Source of the DNA: an uncultured Gammaproteobacteria bacterium
GTDB lineage: Bacteria > Patescibacteriota > Patescibacteriia > Patescibacteriales > GWE2-39-37
Direction: 5' to 3'
Assembly (NCBI GenBank): GCA_964443495.1
Contig: CAYUCS010000003.1
Location: forward strand, 132,031 to 196,030
DNA length: 64,000 nucleotides
How positions within the stretch are numbered: position 1 is the first letter of the stretch; each line of letters opens with the position of its first letter. The translations under genes were made by a program, and so were the position numbers. Positions 6,621-57,326 of this stretch are shown here, in pieces. Under the pieces are notes generated by a model. It made no database searches and was not told the origin of the DNA. It was given only the letters and a program-made list of their open reading frames with translations.

Positions 6621-7808
6621 TTAGGCTGAAATAAGGCAAAAAATCACCTTCAAATATTCTCCTTCAGCAAAACTGACCAACTGAGGATGGTCTATGCCGT
6701 GGGTGAAAGTTTCCAGCACTTGGAGGCTTTTTTTGTTTTTGGCGCCGGCTTCAAGCACGATCTTGCGGAGCTCTTCGAGGGATAGGTGCGCGGAGCATGA
6801 ACAGCTGACCAGGACCTGTCCTGGGTTGAGATTCTTGACCGCAAGGTCGTTGATATATTGGTAGCCGCGCAGGCCTTGGCGTTTTTTGTGGCGGTCTTTG
6901 ATGAAAGCTGGCGGATCAAGGATAATGACATCATGCCGGCCAGGCTCTAATGATTTCAAATATTCTTTGACGTCTTCGCAAATGAAATTCGCCCGAGAGT
7001 CGTCTAGTCCGTTCAATTCCAGATTTTTTCGAGCGAGATCAAGCGCTGCTTGCGAGACATCGACGCTCGTCACTTCGCTGGCGCCGCTCGCCAAGGCATA
7101 AAGCGAGAAGCCGCCGGTGTAAGAGAAGGTGTTGAGTACGTTTTTGCCAGCGGAATATTTTTTAAGAGCTTGCCGTTTGTCGCGCTGATCAAGGAAGAAG
7201 CCGGTCTTCTGGCCGTGCTTGATATCGACATGAAAGCGGATTCCGTTCTCCGATATCTCGACGAGATCGGGCACGCTGCCGTAAAGCAGTCCGGTCGCCT
7301 CGTCCATATTTTCGTCGCGTCGGCCTCGCGCATCGGAACGCTCGTAGATGCCAATCGGACCAAGTTCTTCTGTTAGGGCTTGGATAATCAGGTCCTTCCA
7401 GGCTTCGATGCCTCGAGTATGAAATTGAACAGCCAAATAATCGGCGTAGCGATCGACAATGAGACCGGGTAACAGGTCGTTTTCGCTATTGATCAGGCGG
7501 TAGGCATCGGTGTTTGTCGGCTCGACAAGCCGTTTCCTGATTGACAGCGCCCGTTCGATCCTATTTTTGAAAAATGATAAATCAATCCTTTCGCCTTCTT
7601 CATAGCTCCAGATGCGAACAGCAATCTGCGAGTAGCTGCCGAAATAGCCCTGCGCTAAAAAGCTGCCGCTGTGGTCAGTGACAATGATCGGCGTTCCAGG
7701 GGTAATGCCCTCGGGGATATTTTCCAATCCACCGGAAAAGATCCAGGGGTGGCGTCCGATGACAGGACCGAGCGCTTTATTTTTTACAGTCAGTTTGATT
7801 GTTTTCAT
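6621..7808 (-). CDS. SAM-dependent rRNA (cytosine-C5) methyltransferase, RlmI/YccW-like (PUA plus class I MTase)
   Basis: I start at M50 of the ORF-track frame (MKTIKLTVKNK..GRHPWIFSG), the usual N-terminus of this family. DVIILDPPAF and VLNTFSYTGGFS are SAM-MTase motifs. Confidence 0.8.
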   Translation of the reverse strand: MKTIKLTVKNKALGPVIGRHPWIFSGGLENIPEGITPGTPIIVTDHSGSFLAQGYFGSYSQIAVRIWSYEEGERIDLSFFKNRIERALSIRKRLVEPTNTDAYRLINSENDLLPGLIVDRYADYLAVQFHTRGIEAWKDLIIQALTEELGPIGIYERSDARGRRDENMDEATGLLYGSVPDLVEISENGIRFHVDIKHGQKTGFFLDQRDKRQALKKYSAGKNVLNTFSYTGGFSLYALASGASEVTSVDVSQAALDLARKNLELNGLDDSRANFICEDVKEYLKSLEPGRHDVIILDPPAFIKDRHKKRQGLRGYQYINDLAVKNLNPGQVLVSCSCSAHLSLEELRKIVLEAGAKNKKSLQVLETFTHGIDHPQLVSFAEGEYLKVIFCLISA

Positions 7809-37113: not shown

Positions 37114-37121
37114 CATTTAGG

Positions 37122-37194
37122 GGTGGCTACAGGGAATCGAACCCTGATAATCGGCACCACAAGCCGGTGTAATAACCGCTATACGATAGCCACC
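37122..37194 (-). tRNA. tRNA-His (GTG) with encoded G-1
   Basis: Minus-strand G-GTGGCTA...CCGGC-TTGTGGT-GCCGA...CAGGG-TTCGATT-CCCTG-TAGCCAC-C. The extra 5' G pairs with C73. No complete CCA is encoded. Confidence 0.85.
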
Positions 37195-37223
37195 ATGAAG
37201 CCTATCGATTGATAGACTAAAAT

Positions 37224-37252
37224 AATATACTGTAAACTTTGATTCTTGGCAA
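37224..37252 (-). promoter_or_regulatory. Promoter of tRNA-His
   Basis: Minus-strand TTGCCA (37252-37247), 17 nt, TATATT (37229-37224), about 25 nt upstream of the tRNA 5' end. Confidence 0.6.
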
Positions 37253-37256
37253 GACC

Positions 37257-37321
37257 AGTACCCCCGGCAGCCTGCCTGCCGGCAGGCAGGGAGTCGAAGG
37301 GGCGGAAGCCCCACGCCGAAC
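37257..37321 (-). repeat. Displaced copy of the tRNA-Arg 3' end plus conserved GC hairpin (att-like remnant)
   Basis: Minus strand: CGGCGT-GGGGCTTCCGCCCC-TTCGACTC-[20-nt perfect palindrome]-CTGCCGGGGGTACT. The flanks are identical to 37387-37408 inside tRNA-Arg. Confidence 0.7.
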
Positions 37322-37388
37322 AGTAAATTCTTGACCAAGCCAGGAATAATAATATTTAACCCCAGAAGAATCTGGGCTTAAATATTAG

Positions 37389-37460
37389 TACCCCCGGCAG
37401 GAGTCGAACCTACGTAACCAGCTTAGAAGGCTGGTGTTCTATCCGTTGAACTACGGGGGC
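37389..37460 (-). tRNA. tRNA-Arg (TCT)
   Basis: GCCCCCG-TA-GTTC-AACGGATA-GAAC-A-CCAGC-CTTCTAA-GCTGG-TTAC-GTAGG-TTCGACT-CCTGC-CGGGGGT-A. 72 nt, no CCA encoded. Confidence 0.88.
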
Positions 37461-47240: not shown

Positions 47241-47376
47241 ATCTAGAGGGTTTCGTTTGTTTTTTAGTAAGAGCAAATAATTTGTCATTACTTAATTAAC
47301 CTCCTTCATCTAAGGTTTCTCGTACTTCCGACAACGCAAATAAAAAAGCCCCAGGTTACTGGAACTTTTTTATTTG

Positions 47377-47459
47377 TGCCGCGGGAGGGACTCGAACCCT
47401 CACGAGATTGCTCTCAGCAGATTTTAAGTCTGCCGCGTATACCATTCCGCCACCACGGC
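47377..47459 (-). tRNA. tRNA-Leu (TAA), long variable arm
   Basis: GCCGTGG...GCAGA-CTTAAAA-TCTGC-variable arm-GAGGG-TTCGAGT-CCCTC-CCGCGGC-A. No CCA encoded. It lies 6 nt after the tmRNA 3' end. Confidence 0.85.
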
Positions 47460-47465
47460 CGGATG

Positions 47466-47843
47466 TGGAGATGAGGAGAGTTGAACTCCTGTCTAATAAA
47501 GTTTTTAAAAACAGTTTACAAGCCGTAGCCGCTTTGTTTGTCTGACTGCAATCATCAAAAGTGGCAAAAGCGATTGCAGCGATCCCTAAAGTTTCGGACG
47601 AGCGGCCAGGGCCTCCGCTTGCCTATCTCTGAAAGATAACACCCGGATCGCGAGACCAGAGACTACCCGCGGCGGATGGTTGCGGCGATTTAAGCGGCAA
47701 CAGGTGCAAAGGCAGGTACCTTCCAGGTAAAGCCTTTGGCTAAAGTGTTTTTGGCACTTATGAATTTGAATCGGATTAAGGTGGCGATCCTGCACCGGCT
47801 TGAGTGTTTTCAAAGTTCTTTACTATCGATGCCCGTCATCCCC
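47466..47843 (-). ncRNA. ssrA: tmRNA (SsrA)
   Basis: 5' GGGGATGACGGGCATCGATAG. 3' AGGAG-TTCAACT-CTCCT-CATCTCC-A with a G3:U70 pair. Tag frame GCC AAA AAC ... GTT GCC GCT TAA gives AKNTLAKGFTWKVPAFAPVAA. Directly downstream of smpB. Confidence 0.88.
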
Positions 47844-47858
47844 AAAAAGCAGAAAAAA

Positions 47859-48326
47859 CTATCGATGCGACAGTTTTTGCAGGCTTCGGAGCTTGCGGTC
47901 ACTTTCGCGCTGCTTGATAACATCGCGTTTGTCGTATTTCTTGCGACCCTTGCCTATGCCGAACTCCAGCTTAAGCAAGCTGCGTTTAGTATAGATTTTA
48001 ATCGGAACCAGTGTCAAGCCTTGCTCCTGCTTCTTGCCGATCAGAAAATTGATTTCTTTTTTCTTCAAAAGCAGCTTACGGGAGCGGTAAGGGTCGTAAC
48101 CGTCCAGCTTGCTGGCGTGCTTATATGCCGGAATATGGGCATTGATCAGGTAGAGTTCCGGTAGCTTAAGGTTGCCAGTCTTGACGGTAACGAAGGCGCC
48201 TTTTAGGCTAACATGACCAGTTTTTACCGATTTTACCTCCTGGCCGAACAAAACCAGGCCAGCCTCAAAAGTCTGGCTGATATCATAGTCGAATTTGGCG
48301 CGTTTGTTGTAGGCTAAGGTTGGCAT
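47859..48326 (-). CDS. smpB: SsrA-binding protein SmpB
   Basis: NKRAKFDYDI..FEAGLVLFGQEVKS, YDPYRSRKLLLKKKEI and a basic C-terminal tail. Confidence 0.93.
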   Translation of the reverse strand: MPTLAYNKRAKFDYDISQTFEAGLVLFGQEVKSVKTGHVSLKGAFVTVKTGNLKLPELYLINAHIPAYKHASKLDGYDPYRSRKLLLKKKEINFLIGKKQEQGLTLVPIKIYTKRSLLKLEFGIGKGRKKYDKRDVIKQRESDRKLRSLQKLSHR

Positions 48327-48370
48327 ATAATTGCTTAATTCTAGTATAATTTCAGACTATTTACAACCTC

Positions 48371-48399
48371 TTGCCAAAGTTTATAAAATTATCTATACT
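48371..48399 (+). promoter_or_regulatory. Promoter of tRNA-Gly
   Basis: TTGCCA (48371-48376), 17 nt, TATACT (48394-48399). Confidence 0.6.
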
Positions 48400-48449
48400 A
48401 ACATTTAGTAAAAAGCTCCAACAAGGCTTTTTCTATTTTTCCACAATTC

Positions 48450-48521
48450 GCGGGTATCGTATAATGGCTATTACATTACCTTGCCATGGTAGAGATGGGG
48501 GTTCGATTCCCCCTACCCGCT
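48450..48521 (+). tRNA. tRNA-Gly (GCC)
   Basis: GCGGGTA-TC-GTAT-AATGGCTA-TTAC-A-TTACC-TTGCCAT-GGTAG-AGAT-GGGGG-TTCGATT-CCCCC-TACCCGC-T. No CCA encoded. Confidence 0.9.
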
Positions 48522-48528
48522 CAAAAAA

Positions 48529-48602: not shown

Positions 48603-48631
48603 TTGACTAGTAATGATAAATATGCTTTAAT
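48603..48631 (+). promoter_or_regulatory. Candidate promoter of the RavA-like/VWA pair
   Basis: TTGACT (48603-48608), 17 nt, TTTAAT (48626-48631), about 100 nt upstream of ATG 48736. Confidence 0.4.
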
Positions 48632-48735
48632 ATGAAATTGCCGTTTTGGGCAAATGTTCTTAAAAAATACGAATAACTATGGTGCAGATGAGCTGCAACA
48701 TACCACAGGCCCACGGGCAATGAAAGGAGAAAAGG

Positions 48736-50004
48736 ATGCAAAAATGCAACTGTAGGTTGGGAGGGAAGGATCTGCTGAACGCGGTATTGGCGTATAACCA
48801 GTTTTTTGACGATTTGAAGAAGTGCTTCGTCGGACGTGATCGGGTGATAGACAATCTCCGGTTCGCCATGGTGCAGAAACAGCATCTCCTGACCTTCGGA
48901 CCCCCGGGCACCTCCAAAACCGCTATCTTCGATGTGCTGTACAGCGGACTGACTGACGTGAACGGCTTTCATGCCGAACTGTCGATGTTCATGACCGAAG
49001 ACGCACTTTTCGGTCCGTACAATCCGAAAAAGATGCGGGAAGAAGGCGTACTTGAACACAACGTGTCTGGCATGCTGCCTGAAGCCAACGTGGCCCGGCT
49101 CGGCGAGTTTCTTGACGCCAACATGCCGCTGCTCAGGTCAACCCTGTCAGCGCTTAATGAACGTCGCATGGTACGCGGCCGGCAAAATCTGAGCATCCCA
49201 CTCATCACCGCTTACTGCGACACCAACACCAACCCGGGCACTTTTCTGGAACGCCACCCCGAAGCTTGGGCAGTCCTCGACCGCTTCCTGTTCATGGCTT
49301 ACGTCGATTATCTTTCCGATCCCGACGAGATTGCCGAGATGTTGCTTCGCTTCCAGGGCGGCAACGTCACAAATCTCTCCGGCAGGCTGTCGATAAACCT
49401 GATAAACGAGTTATCGCGCCTGACCCTTGAGCCGCCAACCATAATCAAGAGCGAGTTGATTTTCAGGAAGCTGGCCCAGGGCATGCAGGAATATCGCACA
49501 CAGCGGCGCGCCGCCATCAGCGGGAACAAAATATCGGGAGTTATCCTCCCTGAAATTTCCGATCGGCGCCTTTGCTGGGCGTCGCAGGTTGCTGAGGTCA
49601 ATGCGATCTTGAGCGGCCGCGAAGAAGTGGTGCCTGAAGACATTATCGCTTTGAAGCAGGTTCTTGGCACGACCGAGGCAGAGGAGAAGCTGTGGAGCGA
49701 TATTGCGGCGAAGCTTATCGAGGAAATAAAGGAAGAACAGAAGATGCAGCTTGACCATGCTCAGTATATCGCGCTCGAAGGGCTGATCAAAGAGCTCGAC
49801 CAGGTCGATCCGGCAAGCGCCAAAGATATAACGGCGCTGAAGCAGATCGGAGATAATCTCATGTCTTTGAAAAAGCAGGCCGAGATAATCGTCCCTGAAA
49901 ACGACCAAGTCGCTTCGCTTGCTAAAAAGGCGGAGGCCATAATCGCTGAAAAGACTTTGATAATCAAGGGGCAAGCAGCCGCATTCGCCGGAGTATCGAA
50001 CTGA
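48736..50004 (+). CDS. MoxR-class AAA+ ATPase, RavA-like, with Walker B Asp-Ala instead of Asp-Glu
   Basis: Walker A [30 protein letters not shown] parallels RavA [31 protein letters not shown]. Long helical C-terminal half. AGGAG RBS. Confidence 0.8.
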   Translation: [422 protein letters not shown]

Positions 50005-50014
50005 ACCGAAGGAG

Positions 50015-50980
50015 GTGATCGCATTGTTTCTGTCATTGTTAGCTGGCGCTGCGGCGCTTGCGGCGGCCGCGGCCTTAGCGTGGCGCTTCTGGAAAAAAAT
50101 CAGGAAGGATCAGGAGGAAGAACAGAGGAGGCAGTCGAAAAATTTTTCTAGAAACCATGGAGGAGGCAACGGCTTCGAGGAAGAAAATGAGTATTCCGGA
50201 CCTGGCCAGCAAGAACGTGAACGTCGAGCAAGGGATTATTGGGCGCGCAAAAACGAATTGCTGCAGTCGATAGTCAGGTCAATCGAATTCTCAACAAGAG
50301 AGGTAGTTTCCGACATCCAGATTCCCGGCACACTTCCACGCCAATCGATCGTGCCTACTTCAAACTTCAATGTGAGGCCGATGAAGGGCGTGGGCGAATT
50401 TTCCTCCTTGCTGCCATCGGGCCATCTTTTCGAGGATGATCAGTTCTATGGCCGCATCGCAGCCAACAGCCTGCTGGTGGCTGAGTACCAGGAGTATTAT
50501 GGCAATGCTCGCCGCGTCCTTTTCGCGGCATTCGACGGCTCCGGCAGCATGGAAAAATACGGCCGCGTCGAATGGGCCATAGGCCTTTGCGAGGCGATCA
50601 TTGATCGCTGCGTCGAACAGCAGGCCGAGTTTTACCTCGTGGTATATTCGGGAGTGATCAAGGGCGTTTATCGTGTCCATGATCGCGCATCGGCAGCCGC
50701 GCTCAAAAGCAAGCTGCGAGAAGTGCTCCATCCGGATGGAGGTACCGATATCAACCTGGCGCTAAACACGATTTTCGACATGATCGGAAGCGGCAAGTTT
50801 TCAGAAGCACGCGGCTTGCTGGTGACTGACGGAACCGAGTCGGTGGACGAAGAGCAGATTCTGCATCGGCGCAATTCCGAAAGAGTTTTCCTTCATACGG
50901 TAAGCATTGCCGGCGAAAGGGATGATCTGCGACGCATATCCAATAAATTCGACCAACTGGCCATGAATTCCGCTCCATAG
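50015..50980 (+). CDS. Membrane-tethered von Willebrand factor A (VWA) protein, ViaA-like partner
   Basis: N-terminal TM helix followed by RFWKKIRK, which predicts a cytoplasmic body. Complete MIDAS (DGSGSM, GGTD, VTDGTES). Starts 10 nt after the ATPase gene. Confidence 0.85.
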   Translation: MIALFLSLLAGAAALAAAAALAWRFWKKIRKDQEEEQRRQSKNFSRNHGGGNGFEEENEYSGPGQQERERRARDYWARKNELLQSIVRSIEFSTREVVSDIQIPGTLPRQSIVPTSNFNVRPMKGVGEFSSLLPSGHLFEDDQFYGRIAANSLLVAEYQEYYGNARRVLFAAFDGSGSMEKYGRVEWAIGLCEAIIDRCVEQQAEFYLVVYSGVIKGVYRVHDRASAAALKSKLREVLHPDGGTDINLALNTIFDMIGSGKFSEARGLLVTDGTESVDEEQILHRRNSERVFLHTVSIAGERDDLRRISNKFDQLAMNSAP

Positions 50981-51002
50981 TTATTAAACAGACAAAATTT
51001 GC

Positions 51003-51030
51003 CCCCGCTCTCACAAGGAGCGGGGTTTTT
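51003..51030 (+). terminator. Rho-independent terminator after the VWA gene
   Basis: CCCCGCTC-TCACAAG-GAGCGGGG followed by TTTTT. Confidence 0.75.
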
Positions 51031-51032
51031 CA

Positions 51033-51061
51033 TTGATACTTAATCCAAATAATTATATAGT
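51033..51061 (+). promoter_or_regulatory. Promoter of the A2M-like/Memo-like unit
   Basis: TTGATA (51033-51038), 17 nt, TATAGT (51056-51061). Confidence 0.55.
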
Positions 51062-51098
51062 GGAAGTACTTAGGCTAGCAGATTTTTAATAAAAAAAT

Positions 51099-54000
51099 AT
51101 GTTTTTAAAAGATCACAATGAAGGGCAGACGGGGGGAGCGGCTGGCCAGCAGGCAGCAGCTGCTCCAAACCGGAGTTTTAAAAAAATCGCCATCGCTGCA
51201 ATCGCCTGTTTGGTTGTGGCTGGCGCCGCATTATCGGTGTTCGGTTATCTTAATTCACGTAATACTACATCCGGAAAGCTTGAATTGTCTTTGGTGGCCC
51301 AAGGCGGCGACCTTAACGGCATTGAGAAAAGGGGCTCATTTACCTTGTCTTCAAGCAGGAAGCTGTCTGCAACGGAAATTGAAAAGAATCTGAAATTCGA
51401 TCCGCAGGTGAAATTCGACATTCGTGAGAAGAAGTCCGTATTTTCGTTTCTGGCCGGCAGCGTTTTGGCGGCAAGCCGATCAGCTGCCTTGGATAATCAA
51501 TATGAGATAACGCCCAAGGAGCCGTTGCTCGACGGCGTCGTGTACAAGGTGCAGACAGCCGCATCTTCCAGCTTGCAGTTGGACCATGATTATTCCTGGG
51601 CATTCAACGTAAAGGAAGATTTCGGCATCGATGAGTCGTTGCCGAACGATGAAGCGTACGGCGTACCGGTCAACACCGGCATCGAGGTCACGATGAACCG
51701 CTTGAGCATCGGGCGCGACATCGAGAAATACTTTTCAATCGAACCGAGCGTCAAAGGACGCTTCGAGGTCGGCATGAACAAGATAGTCTTCATTCCGGAA
51801 GGCGACTTGAAAGGCAAGACGTTGTATAGGGTCGTCATCAAGAAGGGCTACAAGGCAGGCGAGAAGAACGAAGAGCTGCTTGAGGATAAGTCGTTCGTTT
51901 TTGAGACTGCCAGCACGGAGAAAGAGGCTTATGTACCGACCATGTCTTGGAGCGACGACTATTTCGAGCTATCTACGAACAACGAAGGCTTTCTTGAGGC
52001 CAGTGGCGACGCCACCACCTCGGAAGTGACATTGAGCCGGTACGCGGATATGGCAGGTTTCTTGAAGGATTTTTACGATTTCCGCGACCGCGCGTACGAC
52101 TGGTCAAATTTCAACAAAGAGCAATTCAAGCCGAGTCCCGCTGCTCAGGAAGTGGCCAAGTTCAAGCCTGAACTCTTGAAGCGGGCAGAGGGAGATAATT
52201 ACGGCTTGATCAAGCTGCCGCGAAAGCTCGAGGCTGGTTTTTATGCGGCCAAAGTCGCAGTCGGCAACGTCGCCGAATACTCGTTTATCCGGGTATCTCC
52301 GCTAGCGTATTATTATTCGCAGATCAACGGAGACGGACTGGTCTGGGCTTACGATTTCGTCAACAAGAAGCCGTTTGCCGGCGTCAGGGTGGCGCTGCTC
52401 GAGAATGGGGGCGGCGAAAAGCAGCTTGGCCAAACCGATGCCGACGGTTTGCTGAAGTTCGATTCAAGTTCGAACAAGGATGATAATTCCGGCATGACCT
52501 TAGTTTTCAGAGGTGACGAAGTCGGTGAGACGGTGGCGCCGGATGCAGGCCGCATCATGGAGAAGCGCAGCAATTTCTATCAAGGATACCTGAATACGGA
52601 TCGTTATGCTTATCGGCTGACTGACAAGGTTCATTTTTGGGGCGTGGTCAAGGGCAGGAGCTTCGATTTGCGCCAGAAGAAGGTGAAAGTCCGCTTGGAT
52701 GATTATATTGAAAAAGAAATCATGGTTTCTCCTTTTGATACCGTCGAGGGAGAGCTTGATTTTGCCGGACTGCCTTCGGGTTATCACAATCTGGTGGTAA
52801 GTTATGACGATGAGGTGATCGCCCAATCAGGAATAGAGGTCTTTTCTTTCGAGAAGCCGCTGTACAAGATCGAGGTTACGCCGGATAAATCATTTTCAGT
52901 GACTGATGCTCCGGTCAAGGCTAAGATCAAGGTCAGTTTTTTTGACGGAACGCCCGTCAAGGATATGGATTTGAACTATTCGATCTATTGGCGCGGCGAC
53001 AATAACGGCACGGTCAGGACCAACGACCAGGGAGAAGCCGAATTGTCCTATACGCCCGGATATTATTTCGAGGAGACTAGTGACCAGTATTCCGATTCAT
53101 GGACGACCTATCCCGGCAGCCTGCGTTTTTCCGTGAGGCCGCAATTGCCCGAAGAGGGTGAGATTTGGGGCGAGGCCTATGTCAGCGTCTATGGACCCAA
53201 GCTCTATATGCAATCCGAGGGGTCGGAAAAAGATGGCGCGTTAGTGTTCAAGAGCAAGGTCAATGACCTGGATCTGGCAACGAGCACGGAAGAAAACCTG
53301 ATCGGCCGTCCGGCCGCCGGCGTCAAGATGAAGGCGAAGGTAGTGCGGTATTATTATGAGGAAAAACCTGATGGCGAATATTATGACCCGATAGAGAAGG
53401 TTAAGATCAAGAAGTTTACCTACGAATTAAAAAAGGAAACAGTCAGGGAAGCTGAGGGCACAAGCGACCAGCGGGGAGAGTGGTCGATCCAGGTCGACAA
53501 GAAAGAAATCAAGAAGTTCGGCTATATCAAGACGATTTTTTCCGCTCAAGACGTTGACGGCAAGAAGGTTATGAGTGCCGCCCAGTCGTATAACTACTAT
53601 CCTAACGACAACACTGCGCTGAACCTGGAGAATGCCGACATCGAAAAGACGCCGGGTGTTTCGTATAAAATCGGTGACAAAGTCAATTTGCGGGTTGTCT
53701 TGACCGGCCCCAAAAAGCCAGTCGACGACCGCACGCTTATTGTCGGCTTCCAGGAGGGATTGCGGAGCGCAAGGCTGATCAATCAGACGACTTTCTCAGA
53801 CACCTTCAGCCGCGACCATGTGCCATCGATGACATATATGGCGGTCAAGATGATGCCGAGCGGCTTCATCGAGAGTTATTATGTGACTGCTTCGTACAAG
53901 GAAGATGAAAGCAAGTTGTCGGTAGAAATATCTTCGGACAAAGAAAGGTACAAGCCGAGGGAAGACATCAATCTCGACATTGCCATCAAGAACAAGTCCG

Positions 54001-56504
54001 GCCAGGGCGTCAAAGCGGTCGCGAATGTCGCAGCTGTCGACGAGTCTCTTTTCAGCGTGACTCCTTGGGGATATGGCGGTGAAATTTTGAGCTCCCTTTA
54101 TGCCGACATCATCGCCTACCCGAGCTCGTTATCTACGAGATATGTCACGGACTATCGCAATGGCGCGGAGAAAGGCGGCTGCTTCGTCGCTGGCACTGAA
54201 ATCAGCTTGGCTGACGGCACAAGAAAGAAGATCGAGGAGGTGCGTGTCGGCGATGAGGTCGTGACTTTCGAGAACGAGAACTCGACCGCCAAGGCCAAGA
54301 GCGTGGTCCAAGGCGTGTCTTCGCATGACGTCGGCGGCTATTTGTTAGTCAATAACAAGCTCAAGGCCACGCCGGAGCACCGGGTTTCGGTCAGCGGAGA
54401 ATGGAAGCCGATCGGCCATGCCAAAGTCGGTGATTTTTTGACGACCGAGGATGGGCGGTCGGAAAAGATCGAGGATATCAGATATGTCAGCGCCAAAAGC
54501 GTGAAAGTTTACAATATTATCGTCGGCCGTTATCACACTTACTTGGCCGATGGCTATTATGTCCATAACGCGGAAAAGGGCGGCGGCGGCGACGTCAGGA
54601 ATTTTTTCGAAGACACGCCTTTGTACAAGCAGATGGAATCAGATGAAAGCGGCCAGCTTAAGGCGTCCTTCAAGGCTCCGGATAACCTGACTAGCTGGCG
54701 TGTTTCGGTCAATGCGTATAGTCCGGAAACTTTCAGCGCTGGCAGCCAAGACAAGCTGGTGCCCGTCGGGCTGCCCTTGTTCGCCGACGCAGTAGTGGCC
54801 AAAAAATATCTGACGGGCGATTCGCCGATCATCAAGATACGCGCGTTCGGCACGGAGTACAAGAAGGACGAGCCGATCGAATTCAGCGTGGCCTGCGAGA
54901 GCTTGAAGCTGTCATTTGCGACCACCACGAAATCGAATGAGACAGCGGTCGCCCTCGGAGCGTTGCCTAGAGGAAGACACGACTTGATAATCAGGGTTAA
55001 GCAAGGCAACCTGTCAGACGCGCTGGAAAAGAAATTCGAGGTTATCGATAATTACTTTAAGGAATTGAAAACCGACAGCAAGCTGCTGCGTGACGGGGCG
55101 GCGGATCTCAAGGGCAATGCGGCCGGTTTTACGGATGTCGTTTTCGTCGATGAGGGCAAGGGCAGATTCTTCGAATATCTTTTGAGCTTGACCTGGCAAT
55201 CAAGCATCCGCTCGGATGTCCAGGCAGCTTCATATCTAGCCGCTAAAGCTCTGAATCAATATTTTTATCCAGACAAAAAACATTTCAACGAAGACATAGC
55301 TTTGTCTGGGTATCAGTCACGGGAAGAATGGGCTGGTCCGCTGGCGGTTTTTCCTTACGGCAAGCCGAGCATCAGGCTGACCGCCGAAATGGCTGATGCC
55401 ATGCCAGAAGCTTTTGATAATACCTGGGCAGCGGATGCTTTGGAGGCTAGATTGAACGAACAGAAACTTGATCCGACGGAAGCTGGCCAAGCATTGTGGG
55501 CTTTGGCGGCGCTCGGTCGTCCCCAGCTGCCATTGATAAACTATCTTAAGAATAGCGCCACCACCACGGTCGAAGCGCGGCTGTATCTGGCCTTAGCGCT
55601 GGATAGTGCCGGCGATTCCGAAGGGGCAAGGGAAATCTATTTCGACCAGCTGCTACCTCAACTCAAGATTGAAAATGGCCAGGCACATTTCGAGGTGGGC
55701 CCCTCTAAGGATGCGAACATCAAAGCAACGGCGATCTTCGGCCTGCTGGTGTCGCGGCTCGATCTTTCCGACGAGGGTCGGAACTTAAAGATGATAATCA
55801 ATTACCTGGCGGACAATCAGCCGAAAGAGGATACGATCGCGCTTGAGGAGGCCATGATCGTAAAGAGCGAAATCGCCAAGGCCGATCAGGGCGACACGTC
55901 GTTCGACTATTCGACCGCTGACCGCAAAGGGTCTGTTGATTTGAGCAAGGGGCGGTCATTCCAGTTGACGCTGTCCAGTCAGGAGTTTCCATCATTATCT
56001 TTCAGCAATGTGAAGGGACTGCCCAGAGCCATAAGCTATTATGAGAATTACGCAGATCCGGCAAAAATACCGACGAGCGATATGCTAAGCGTCGAGCGGC
56101 AATATCTTGTGAACGGCAAAGAGGTTACCGAATTCAAGGAGGGCGACTTGATCACTGTCCGCCTGACTCCTCGCCTTGCAGCCGGAGCGCCTGACGGCTC
56201 GTATCAGCTGGCAGAGTATCTGCCTTCGGCGTTGAAGCCGATCGTCCGCAATTACGGGCTGGACATTGAGACTGGAAGCGATTGCAACCCGATCTGGTAT
56301 CCGGTCAAAACCACTGATGAGGCGGTGTATTTCGATATCGGGAAATGGTTCCAGGCTTCCGAGCGCTGCCAGCAGCGCACGGTCAATTTCAGGGCAAGGG
56401 TGATCGGCAAAGGCAATTTCAAGGCGCAGCCAGCCTCGTTCCAATCGCTTGTCGATGTCAACGTGATCGGCTTGTCAAAAGAGAAGAATATCCAAGTCAA
56501 ATAA
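51099..56504 (+). CDS. Membrane-anchored alpha-2-macroglobulin-like giant protein (thioester-less) with an internal Hint/mini-intein domain
   Basis: RSFKK plus a TM helix gives N-in/C-out topology. Repeated beta-sandwich-like segments. RNFFEDT..APDNLTSWRVSV and LPLFADAVVAKKYLTGDSPIIKIR match the post-bait A2M/C3 motifs. A helical TED-like region (EAGQALWALAALG) has no CxEQ. C-terminal AEYLPSALKPI is a receptor-domain-like motif. Confidence 0.65.
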   Translation: MFLKDHNEGQTGGAAGQQAAAAPNRSFKKIAIAAIACLVVAGAALSVFGYLNSRNTTSGKLELSLVAQGGDLNGIEKRGSFTLSSSRKLSATEIEKNLKFDPQVKFDIREKKSVFSFLAGSVLAASRSAALDNQYEITPKEPLLDGVVYKVQTAASSSLQLDHDYSWAFNVKEDFGIDESLPNDEAYGVPVNTGIEVTMNRLSIGRDIEKYFSIEPSVKGRFEVGMNKIVFIPEGDLKGKTLYRVVIKKGYKAGEKNEELLEDKSFVFETASTEKEAYVPTMSWSDDYFELSTNNEGFLEASGDATTSEVTLSRYADMAGFLKDFYDFRDRAYDWSNFNKEQFKPSPAAQEVAKFKPELLKRAEGDNYGLIKLPRKLEAGFYAAKVAVGNVAEYSFIRVSPLAYYYSQINGDGLVWAYDFVNKKPFAGVRVALLENGGGEKQLGQTDADGLLKFDSSSNKDDNSGMTLVFRGDEVGETVAPDAGRIMEKRSNFYQGYLNTDRYAYRLTDKVHFWGVVKGRSFDLRQKKVKVRLDDYIEKEIMVSPFDTVEGELDFAGLPSGYHNLVVSYDDEVIAQSGIEVFSFEKPLYKIEVTPDKSFSVTDAPVKAKIKVSFFDGTPVKDMDLNYSIYWRGDNNGTVRTNDQGEAELSYTPGYYFEETSDQYSDSWTTYPGSLRFSVRPQLPEEGEIWGEAYVSVYGPKLYMQSEGSEKDGALVFKSKVNDLDLATSTEENLIGRPAAGVKMKAKVVRYYYEEKPDGEYYDPIEKVKIKKFTYELKKETVREAEGTSDQRGEWSIQVDKKEIKKFGYIKTIFSAQDVDGKKVMSAAQSYNYYPNDNTALNLENADIEKTPGVSYKIGDKVNLRVVLTGPKKPVDDRTLIVGFQEGLRSARLINQTTFSDTFSRDHVPSMTYMAVKMMPSGFIESYYVTASYKEDESKLSVEISSDKERYKPREDINLDIAIKNKSGQGVKAVANVAAVDESLFSVTPWGYGGEILSSLYADIIAYPSSLSTRYVTDYRNGAEKGGCFVAGTEISLADGTRKKIEEVRVGDEVVTFENENSTAKAKSVVQGVSSHDVGGYLLVNNKLKATPEHRVSVSGEWKPIGHAKVGDFLTTEDGRSEKIEDIRYVSAKSVKVYNIIVGRYHTYLADGYYVHNAEKGGGGDVRNFFEDTPLYKQMESDESGQLKASFKAPDNLTSWRVSVNAYSPETFSAGSQDKLVPVGLPLFADAVVAKKYLTGDSPIIKIRAFGTEYKKDEPIEFSVACESLKLSFATTTKSNETAVALGALPRGRHDLIIRVKQGNLSDALEKKFEVIDNYFKELKTDSKLLRDGAADLKGNAAGFTDVVFVDEGKGRFFEYLLSLTWQSSIRSDVQAASYLAAKALNQYFYPDKKHFNEDIALSGYQSREEWAGPLAVFPYGKPSIRLTAEMADAMPEAFDNTWAADALEARLNEQKLDPTEAGQALWALAALGRPQLPLINYLKNSATTTVEARLYLALALDSAGDSEGAREIYFDQLLPQLKIENGQAHFEVGPSKDANIKATAIFGLLVSRLDLSDEGRNLKMIINYLADNQPKEDTIALEEAMIVKSEIAKADQGDTSFDYSTADRKGSVDLSKGRSFQLTLSSQEFPSLSFSNVKGLPRAISYYENYADPAKIPTSDMLSVERQYLVNGKEVTEFKEGDLITVRLTPRLAAGAPDGSYQLAEYLPSALKPIVRNYGLDIETGSDCNPIWYPVKTTDEAVYFDIGKWFQASERCQQRTVNFRARVIGKGNFKAQPASFQSLVDVNVIGLSKEKNIQVK
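54180..54569 (+). other. Hint (mini-intein/BIL-like) domain, aa 1028-1157 of the giant protein
   Basis: Block A CFVAGTEISLADG, block B ATPEHRV, block F VYNIIVGRYHTYLADG, block G YYVHN. The next residue is Ala. Flanked by AEKGG on both sides. Confidence 0.8.
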
Positions 56505-57326
56505 ATGTCGGCAAAAAAATACGCCTTGTTGCTATTGTCCTTGTTTCTGGCTGTCCAACCCGTCATGGCTGGCACACCTTTGGTTTATGACTATAAGGAC
56601 TACAAGAGCTTGATCGGACGCAAGAAGAATCCGGATTATCGCCTGCGCATAAAATCGCCATCGGTCGGCATCGTGTCCCATCATCTTCCGACCGCTTCGC
56701 CATTGATCGATAACTTTTATTTCCAGCTGAAAAAAAATCGGCCGAATATCAAGACCTTCGTCGTGATCGGCCCTGATCATTCTGAGCGTTGCCGGCACAA
56801 GTTCGGCGTCAGCGATGCTGACATCACTACGATGTACGGCAGCATCGCGGCAGACAAGAAGCTGGTCAAGCGAATTGAAGTTGCTGGCGCCAAAATAGAA
56901 AACCACTGCTTCGAGGGCGAACACGCGATAGGGGTCCAGGCGAACTATATCAGGAAATTTTTCCCCCAAGCCAAGATCGCTCCGATACTCCTGTCTTTCG
57001 CGGCCAAGCAGTCGGATTTCAGCGGGCTTGTCAACGAACTTGAAAAAAATCGTGCAGACATCTTTGTTTTGGCCAGCGTGGACTTCACCCATTACATGGA
57101 CGTGCAACAGGCTGAGGCCATCGACGCCATAAGCCTGAAAATGATCAACGGATTGGAAGGCGGGTCTTTTTCATTGAAGCAGATAGATTCGCCAGCTACC
57201 ATCAAGGCGGTGCTTTGCCTCGCCCGAAGGCTCAGGTTGCAAGCGGAGGTTGTCGAACATAAGAACTCATTCGACTATAACGGCGCATACAAAAATACGA
57301 CCAGCTATTTCTCGGTCTTTTTTTAA
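56505..57326 (+). CDS. Memo-like protein (AmmeMemoRadiSam system protein B family) with signal peptide
   Basis: The ATG immediately follows the TAA of the giant gene. Signal KKYALLLLSLFLAVQPVMAG. Family motifs VSHHLP, VIGPDH, EGEHAIGVQ and ASVDFTHY. Confidence 0.75.
   Translation: MSAKKYALLLLSLFLAVQPVMAGTPLVYDYKDYKSLIGRKKNPDYRLRIKSPSVGIVSHHLPTASPLIDNFYFQLKKNRPNIKTFVVIGPDHSERCRHKFGVSDADITTMYGSIAADKKLVKRIEVAGAKIENHCFEGEHAIGVQANYIRKFFPQAKIAPILLSFAAKQSDFSGLVNELEKNRADIFVLASVDFTHYMDVQQAEAIDAISLKMINGLEGGSFSLKQIDSPATIKAVLCLARRLRLQAEVVEHKNSFDYNGAYKNTTSYFSVFF

Follow-up and report, generated by a model that had tools for sequence, protein, structure and literature searches.

The window examined here, a 64,000-nt stretch of contig CAYUCS010000003.1, contains four consecutive genes on the + strand. 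They encode a MoxR-class AAA+ ATPase, a von Willebrand factor A (VWA) protein tethered to the membrane, a 1801-aa anchored protein of alpha-2-macroglobulin (A2M) type, hereafter the giant, and a secreted Memo-family protein. An earlier note had described these genes and proposed that all four form one module of envelope defence or surface maturation. The locus thus raises two questions: whether the genes belong together, and what a Hint domain is doing inside the giant. Our reading is that two unrelated units lie side by side, and that in one of them, an operon of the giant and Memo, a bacterial intein-like (BIL) domain located at the bait site would process the giant autocatalytically into a two-chain or re-ligated protein. 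Judging from the conserved residues detailed below, we give this reading a probability of about 0.58.

Profile searches returned matches for all four proteins (Table 1). For the giant, the Pfam domains were found in the order Big_5, bMG3, MG2, A2M_BRD, PT-HINT/Vint (residues 1027-1156), A2M and bMG10; the A2M_BRD match was above the Pfam cutoff, and those of bMG3 and MG2 below theirs. Two overlapping halves of the protein were then modelled with AlphaFold2 (AF2), using an alignment of 31 homologs as input. Residues 52-1027 (model mb4d9a7d330f0, predicted local distance difference test (pLDDT) 87.1) form an all-beta MG array. Residues 840-1801 (model m7511e6683fe9, pLDDT 85.3) show, in this order, an MG domain, a disordered linker, a beta-rich Hint domain, a short disordered linker, MG7, half of a CUB domain, a TED-like domain of 11 helices, the second CUB half and MG10. 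When this half was compared to the PDB with Foldseek, E. coli ECAM (5a42, 2.5e-33) and Salmonella A2M came first, followed by human A2ML1, CD109, A2M, TEP1 and C3/C4/C5, all matches spanning 1e-33 to 1e-18. The N-terminal half again matched ECAM and Salmonella A2M, at 1e-28 to 1e-25 (7.4e-28 for ECAM 5a42), as well as the isolated beta chains of C3/C4/C5, with a TM-score of about 0.5 on the target. In addition, the family profile matches canonical TED-bearing bacterial A2Ms at 1e-77 to 1e-21. On the basis of these models, the membership of the giant in the A2M superfamily is solid, which agrees with the domain order that the earlier note had read from the letters. Individual members are named in NCBI either 'alpha-2-macroglobulin family protein' or 'polymorphic toxin-type HINT domain-containing protein'.

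No CxEQ motif is present in the giant, which has 5 Cys in total. In an alignment with CxEQ-bearing bacterial A2Ms, the canonical YPYGCxEQ faces WQSSIRSD, so that the thioester Cys and Gln are replaced by Ser1369 and Asp1373, respectively. The C.EQ motif was missing from 128 of the 129 full-length family representatives as well. The giant is excluded from the thioester-bearing class of A2Ms.

Bacterial A2Ms are of two types. Those of type I (ECAM/YfhM, Salmonella A2M) gave the best structural matches to both halves of the giant, and have the MG array, the CUB-TED insertion and MG10 in common with it. Unlike the giant, however, they possess a CxEQ thioester, are anchored in the periplasm as lipoproteins and are linked to pbpC, and their bait is sensitive to proteases, where the giant carries a Hint domain. 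No pbpC or mag-like gene was detected in the annotated contexts of giant homologs. With type II A2Ms (P. aeruginosa MagD and E. coli YfaS, PMC5764988), the giant shares fold, domain order, lack of CxEQ and membrane association; the bait cut of these proteins yields two associated fragments, and they have dedicated partner genes, as the giant has Memo. The differences are that the giant has its own N-terminal transmembrane (TM) anchor, and that its hosts, which belong to the candidate phyla radiation (CPR), Bacillota and Chloroflexota, have no mag/yfa operon, whereas MagD and YfaS are found in Gram-negatives. Its partner is a secreted Memo, with or without an extracytoplasmic function (ECF) sigma factor, instead of MagA, B, C, E and F, and its bait linker is short and conserved (AExGG), carrying here a Hint domain predicted to be self-cleaving.

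The position of this Hint domain was defined from the motifs around it. It lies between the STRYV motif that closes the BRD and a post-bait motif VRxFFxDT...PDNLTSW, and its junctions in the window read AEKGG/CFVAGT...TPEH...VYNIIVGRYHTYLADGYYVHN/AEKGGGG (slashes at the boundaries). In relatives devoid of Hint, the bait is a short Gly-rich linker with a conserved GG-A-E-[KQRMCSG]-G-G-[EG]-G (for instance L044, L051, L054, L059 and L075). The GG-A-E-x-G-G motif was found at the bait across Bacillota, Chloroflexota and CPR, and the Hint insertion point is exactly after AExGG. The bait of MagD, ANRSERG, has been mapped experimentally (PMC5764988), and in the MagD ortholog P0025 it falls within the same STRYV-to-post-bait segment as Hint. 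Given this inter-motif location, the AExGG linker and the place of the MagD bait, we conclude that Hint occupies the bait position.

The domain itself is 129-130 aa long and contains no homing endonuclease domain. Pfam matches were PT-HINT (2.4e-9, the best), Vint, Hint and Intein_splicing, and a sequence search among PDB chains returned mini-inteins at about 1e-6 and the C. thermocellum BIL 2lwy at 2e-6. In the 840-1801 model, Hint is folded and rich in beta structure, and the linkers on both sides of it (residues ~988-1026 and 1158-1164) have a pLDDT below 50 and are predicted to be disordered. Junction residues were tallied over 74 Hint instances among cluster representatives at 50% identity. 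Position -1 is Gly in 70 of them, position 1 is Cys in 73 and Ser in 1 (Cys1028 in the window), and the last two residues are His-Asn in all 74 (His1156-Asn1157). At +1, where the window has Ala1158, we counted D 22, A 17, E 16, Q 10, K 2, N 1 and I 1, next to S 3 and T 2; the residue is therefore a non-nucleophile in 69/74 instances, and one of D/A/E/Q in 65/74. Across 39 species, with Hint identity down to 30%, Gly-1, Cys1, Phe2, the T..H of block B, the residues of block F and the terminal VHN are invariant.

With its blocks A, B, F and G, Cys1, His-Asn and no nucleophile at +1, the predicted domain fits the definition of type-A BIL domains. A canonical class 1 splicing intein is ruled out by the +1 residue, Ala in the window and non-nucleophilic in 69/74 instances. 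Type-A BIL domains were reportedly described by Amitai in 2003 and Dassa in 2004. They have in common with the Hint of the giant its fold, Cys1, the block B TxxH, His-Asn, the absence of a +1 nucleophile, and secreted or surface hosts; what sets the latter apart is that it has been conserved vertically, at one homologous position, throughout a large family. In type-A BILs (reviewed in PMC4031507; structure 2lwy), an N-terminal thioester forms and the C-terminal cut is made by Asn cyclisation. Cleavage products dominate, and ligation of the flanks is possible by aminolysis (PMC4031507, PMC7664689). The PT-HINT domains of polymorphic toxins, to which the best Pfam match belongs, usually serve as autoproteolytic release modules in large surface proteins; in the giant, no toxin domain follows, and Hint is internal to the scaffold, between MG domains. 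In the literature searched, we found no report of a BIL or Hint domain in a protein of the A2M family, or within a bait region.

We propose the following mechanism. After export and folding, Cys1028 would perform an N-S acyl shift at the Gly1027-Cys1028 bond, Asn1157 would cyclise, and Hint would be released. The chain would in this way cut itself at the site used by proteases in canonical A2Ms and by convertases in C3/C4/C5. The outcome would be two non-covalently associated chains, one anchored and beta-chain-like, the other made of MG7-CUB-TED-MG10, and a minority product might be re-ligated by aminolysis. Bait cleavage would be hard-wired, either constitutive or self-timed, instead of awaiting a foreign protease. 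Since bait-cleaved MagD fragments stay associated (PMC5764988), the processed chains of the giant likely do so too, by analogy. A parallel with complement can also be drawn, as the beta chains of C3/C4/C5 match the N-extein of the giant, and the insert is found at a junction equivalent to the beta/alpha one. Removal of an inserted domain at the beta/alpha junction activates C3, C4 and C5. Processing of the giant, however, would be autocatalytic, by Hint rather than by furin or convertases, and the inserted domains are not homologous.

Two properties of Hint bear on whether it contributes to its host. First, it is more conserved than the host protein (mean pairwise identity of 46%, versus 30%), and second, it co-diverges with it, Hint distances tracking host distances (Mantel r 0.64, 0/2000 permutations). 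Both argue against Hint being a selfish or neutral passenger of the mini-intein kind, whose BIL-type splicing would restore a single-chain A2M-like protein with no added function. The absence of a homing endonuclease from so small a domain and its retention in about half of a family of at least 600 clusters point in the same direction, as does the non-nucleophilic +1 residue of 69/74 instances, because in characterised BILs cleavage products then predominate (PMC7664689). Such a passenger would nevertheless account for a location in the AExGG linker, inteins being typically found in the most conserved motif of the host. Type-A BILs are moreover able to splice (PMC4031507), the nearest PDB sequence relatives include true mini-inteins, and Hint-bearing and Hint-less lineages are interleaved in a distance tree. 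Taken together, we regard this possibility as unlikely, though deserving attention.

A different chemistry can be imagined for a family in which CxEQ was lost, yet half of the members gained, at the bait, a domain able to form a thioester. At Gly1027, the backbone thioester formed by Hint might be resolved by an external nucleophile (a target amine, a cell-wall precursor or a lipid), and so act as a covalent warhead or an anchoring device replacing CxEQ. The Gly-Gly conserved before Cys1 (Gly at -1 in 70/74) would suit such a reaction, and in Hedgehog-type Hint domains the N-terminal partner is known to be passed on to a nucleophile that is not a protein (PMC7664689). The conserved terminal His-Asn, however, points to a C-terminal cleavage that is BIL-like and unlike Hedgehog, and no adduct-recognition domain is evident. 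Hint-less relatives have neither thioester, which means that covalent chemistry is not needed for the function of the family. A second, independently evolved chemistry of covalent capture or anchoring, in which the thioester at Gly-Gly is resolved by a foreign amine or an envelope nucleophile, possibly with the assistance of Memo, is accordingly a speculative prospect that we hold to be quite improbable.

Going back to self-processing at the bait as the preferred reading, we asked which genes accompany the giant. The conserved-neighbour test covered the contigs of giant homologs (12 contexts consulted), plus 80 loci obtained by scanning GTDB with one genome for each species. Memo was immediately 3' of the giant, on the same strand, in every homolog context examined individually, and downstream in 51 of the 71 GTDB loci with enough downstream sequence. 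All-against-all clustering of the flanking ORFs of 85 loci gave Memo (59) and an ECF sigma factor (33) as the only recurrent neighbours, apart from an occasional PGA_cap. We conclude that the conserved unit is the giant plus Memo, a two-gene operon, which is strongly supported; the part of the earlier proposal that linked these two genes thereby holds across relatives. In the window, the ATG of Memo is the base right after the stop codon of the giant, the two genes probably being co-translated, and the next gene is infC.

The Memo protein starts with a signal peptide, MSAKKYALLLLSLFLAVQPVMA/G (slash at the predicted cut), and scored above the cutoffs of both Pfam Memo (3.2e-20, 72.9 bits for a cutoff of 27) and TIGR04336 (3.3e-24, 85.6 bits for a cutoff of 26); no match at 1e-3 was found among PDB chain sequences. 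The metal-site residues H59, H60, H92, E139, H140, D193, H196 and D228 are invariant across 59 Memo partners, which are probably active metalloproteins. Memo is also known from the AmmeMemoRadiSam system, which is cytoplasmic and associates it with AMMECR1 and a radical SAM enzyme. The Memo of the window differs by its signal peptide and by its flanks, and neither AMMECR1 nor the radical SAM family was recurrent among the neighbours of the 85 loci. Its role may be a metal- or redox-dependent maturation of the giant, or that of a binding partner. At 7 loci, a PGA_cap domain (CapA-like, PF09587) was fused to Memo (L011:7411-9186, L013:13096-14883, L017:3971-5704, L050:12859-14646 and L086:8346-10250) or encoded beside it as a separate gene (L043:14102-15226 and L047:10031-11128), which hints at a link to envelope polymers.

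The second partner, the ECF-type sigma-70 gene (Sigma70_r2 + r4_2), is directly upstream of the giant homolog, or overlaps it, in 28 of 69 GTDB loci (among which L015, L016, L018, L021-L023, L025, L051, L055, L059 and L061, with the gene at locus coordinates ~7000-7800). At these loci the first TM helix of the giant comes ~55-130 residues into the ORF, as compared to ~5-40 when no sigma gene is present; the giant of the window, with a tail of 28 aa and no sigma gene upstream, conforms to this. No sigma or PGA_cap gene was found in the window. The gene order suggests that the sigma-linked relatives are anti-sigma::A2M-like fusion proteins, and no Pfam anti-sigma match was obtained with their N-terminal tails. 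Autoproteolytic anti-sigma factors such as RsgI (PMC10328401) offer a comparison for the 28 relatives that follow a sigma gene and have a long cytoplasmic tail, and that may thus be anti-sigma factors whose ectodomain cleaves itself; the giant of the window differs from them in both respects, and the anti-sigma role of its relatives comes from gene order only. In such relatives the giant homolog could be a sensor. No Hint-bearing locus was without both Memo and a sigma gene, and no recurrent alternative downstream ORF was found at the loci that are Hint-positive, Memo-negative and sigma-positive. The literature searched gave no account of an A2M paired with an anti-sigma/ECF system or with Memo; in one paper on Patescibacteria, bacterial A2M appears among the references and nowhere else.

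The size of the family was estimated by an exhaustive search of cluster representatives with the C-extein: 605 clusters at 50% identity were found with E <= 1e-30, and 1090 with E <= 1e-10. A profile word-index search returned canonical A2Ms rather than more close relatives. Members are present in Patescibacteria, Peregrinibacteria, Bacillota and Chloroflexota. The window itself comes from a CPR/Patescibacteria genome, Falkowbacteria-like, as the closest homolog of its giant belongs to a Candidatus Falkowbacteria genome. Six metagenome-assembled genomes (MAGs) entitled 'uncultured Gammaproteobacteria bacterium' (L010, L014, L023, L026, L029 and L043) carry Hint-bearing giants of CPR type with Memo, and their Gammaproteobacteria labels are probably wrong.

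This distribution, together with the sigma genes, makes it very unlikely that the giant simply serves an episymbiotic CPR cell as an adhesin or as a structural protein of its surface, reusing the MG/TED scaffold and shedding its distal half by means of Hint. The same family is carried by free-living Bacillota and Chloroflexota, the complete A2M architecture (CUB, TED-like, MG10) is kept across three phyla, and the ECF sigma association in 28/69 loci points to sensing, not adhesion. What such an adhesin would explain are the Big_5 and other Ig-like domains of the N-terminal region and the bait linker of Hint-less relatives, which is short and conserved instead of variable; the CPR lifestyle, as generally known, fits as well.

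Several points nevertheless weigh against bait-site self-processing in a giant-Memo operon. Hint is present in 66 of the 129 full-length family representatives, and the rough distance tree, in which lineages with and without it alternate, implies that multiple losses or gains must have occurred; a mobile selfish element would give the same pattern. Memo is absent from 20 of the 71 loci. Processing of the bait is deduced from conserved residues only, and splicing by a type-A BIL might leave a single chain, with no functional consequence. Finally, since the conserved AExGG linker is short, and unlike the long and variable baits of broad-spectrum traps, protease trapping is uncertain for the whole family. 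The giant could be a surface protease trap or shield.

Thioester-less A2Ms and type-A BIL or PT-HINT domains are already known. What separates the giant from these systems is first of all a Hint domain at the bait site, and in addition its TM anchor, the phyla of its hosts and the partners found in its family, Memo and sigma. In A2M, C3 and TEP proteins, the textbook case, activation couples a cut in the bait to thioester chemistry. At least 600 clusters at 50% identity make up the present family; it has lost the thioester, and half of its members appear to have bait cleavage built in through a domesticated intein-like domain, which makes the family a natural experiment on how the scaffold operates without an external protease. 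Bacterial intein-like domains, the biology of which is poorly understood, gain a defined structural context and a testable role. Bacterial macroglobulins gain two unexpected partners, a secreted metalloprotein of the Memo family and, in many relatives, an ECF sigma factor, the latter suggesting that A2M-like ectodomains may be envelope sensors in monoderm and CPR bacteria. Hint-less relatives occur in the cultivable genera Tepidanaerobacter, Desulfitobacterium and Dehalobacter, so that the family is accessible to experiments.

There remains the question of MoxR and VWA. The proposal that MoxR, the tethered VWA protein, the giant and Memo make a single envelope-defence or surface-maturation module started from their adjacency on one strand, and this arrangement was found again in the closest relative, a Candidatus Falkowbacteria MAG whose giant is 77% identical and in which the entire region is syntenic. 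It was not found beyond this relative. In P0003 (72% identity), an ABC-transporter ATPase gene and unknown genes are upstream of the giant instead, while the downstream order Memo-infC-rpmI-rplT-secG-SBP is retained. Neither MoxR nor VWA was upstream of the giant in P0005 (58%), P0007 (56%), P0010 (48%) or P0011 (29%), nor next to the Hint-less homolog of the Patescibacteria member P0012 (28%). Hidden Markov model searches of six-frame ORFs within ±8 kb of the giant homologs did not reveal a MoxR or VWA relative at any of the 80 GTDB species loci.

Seen from the MoxR side, the result was the same. MoxR homologs (43-55% identical) were found in four other CPR genomes, each followed by a VWA gene of ~300 aa, and in none of the four was a giant or Memo gene beside them. 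In three of these genomes the pair is preceded by a gene for a homologous secreted protein of ~240-290 aa (33-41% identity; L090:7106-7990, L091:7162-7887, L092:7219-7980), and in two it is followed by a gene for a homologous protein of ~235 aa (L090:10360-11058, L091:10281-11003). The window has no counterpart of either. An additional argument is the location of the products, the VWA domain being predicted in the cytoplasm (see below), and the giant ectodomain and Memo outside the cell. PADLOC gave no match for any of the four proteins, so anti-phage defence was discarded. Because MoxR and VWA are absent from 72% identity downwards and from all 80 loci, and because MoxR pairs with VWA only, we conclude that their presence beside the giant is a local and recent juxtaposition, two unrelated units lying side by side. 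A four-gene module is thus rejected from both sides and largely refuted, and we see hardly any chance left for it: of the neighbourhood expected to recur, the giant-Memo half does, and the MoxR-VWA half stops at the 77% relative. Adjacency to the giant in one genome was misleading here, which calls for caution.

The signals between the two halves, which the earlier note had itself rightly pointed out as a caveat, were both recovered by a sequence scan. A terminator-like stem 3' of the VWA gene (51003-51025, 9 bp with 7 GC pairs) is followed by TTTTT, and a promoter-like site, TTGATA-17-TATAGT (51033-51061), has 10/12 matches. Terminator and promoter separate the MoxR-VWA operon from the giant-Memo operon. 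Coordinates are collected in Table 1.

Table 1. Features of the MoxR-VWA and giant-Memo region (window coordinates).
Feature	Position	Strand	Details and basis
tRNA-Gly	48450-48522		upstream of MoxR
MoxR-class (bpMoxR family) AAA+ ATPase	48736..50004	+	422 aa; Pfam bpMoxR 5.8e-35, AAA_5, AAA_lid_8
TM-tethered VWA protein	50015..50980	+	321 aa, GTG start; Pfam VWA 2.7e-7
Terminator-like hairpin, then sigma-70-like promoter	51003..51061	+	sequence scan
Giant, signal-anchored thioester-less A2M-family protein	51099..56504	+	1801 aa; Pfam, AF2 models, Foldseek
Giant: single TM anchor, residues ~29-51	51183..51251	+	28-aa cytoplasmic tail before it; sequence, hydropathy scan
Giant: N-extein, all-beta MG and Ig-like array ending in A2M_BRD and AEKGG motif	51252..54179	+	model, Foldseek
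Giant: type-A BIL-like Hint domain, residues 1028-1157	54180..54569	+	Pfam, PDB sequence matches, junction conservation
Giant: C-extein, post-bait motif, MG7 (A2M), CUB halves around TED-like domain, MG10	54570..56501	+	model DSSP, Foldseek, Pfam A2M/bMG10
Giant: TED-like alpha-helical domain without thioester, residues ~1354-1594	55158..55880	+	11 helices in model, alignment
Secreted Memo-family protein	56505..57326	+	273 aa; Pfam Memo, TIGR04336

As to the MoxR-VWA pair itself, the ATPase had been called RavA-like. It is of MoxR class, with bpMoxR as best Pfam family and GPPGTSKT as Walker A, but it is only distantly related to RavA and not its ortholog, as its score with the NCBIfam RavA model (NF010054) was 79.6 bits for a cutoff of 681. 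Its Walker B (ARLGEFLD, residues ~119-126, window 49090-49110) is unusual: the Asp of hhhhDE is Gly in 29/29 aligned CPR MoxR homologs, and LDEL is kept in three more distant relatives. The VWA gene begins 10 nt after the MoxR stop codon and forms an operon with it. Its MIDAS (metal ion-dependent adhesion site) is complete, as announced earlier, with DGSGS at 174 (D174), GGTD at 242 (T244) and VTDG at 270 (D272). The N-terminus (residues 1-23) is a hydrophobic helix with no charge before it and RFWKKIRK after it (window 50015-50110), for which the positive-inside rule predicts an N-out/C-in orientation. This would tether the VWA domain to the membrane from the cytoplasmic side, where MoxR is; the giant, in which RSFKK precedes the TM helix, is N-in/C-out, and its ectodomain is predicted to be extracytoplasmic, like Memo.

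In MoxR-vWA-beta-propeller ternary systems (bpMoxR), a third component is present. No beta-propeller or equivalent component was found beside the pair of the window, the neighbours of which are tRNA-Gly upstream, and the terminator and the A2M-like gene downstream. We conclude that MoxR and VWA form a two-gene unit of their own, from a clade specific to CPR, and that they most likely work on the cytoplasmic side of the membrane.

The left edge at 48603 that the region had been given is intergenic, with no gene starting there. Directly 5' of MoxR is a cluster of small-RNA genes (47376-48522), made of tRNA-Leu(taa), a tmRNA (tag AKNTLAKGFTWKVPAFAPVAA) and tRNA-Gly(gcc). An ORF of 155 aa on the - strand (47859-48326) occupies the position that the SmpB gene has in the syntenic relative L001, and is a candidate for it by position only. 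Further upstream, the segment 34158-37047 has a low GC content (0.38-0.42, versus ~0.50) and encodes an ArsR-family helix-turn-helix protein, a thioredoxin, an ArsP_1 permease, an unknown protein and DsbD_2. It is adjoined by tRNA-His and tRNA-Arg (37120-37460), and is possibly an acquired islet for metal(loid) or redox functions.

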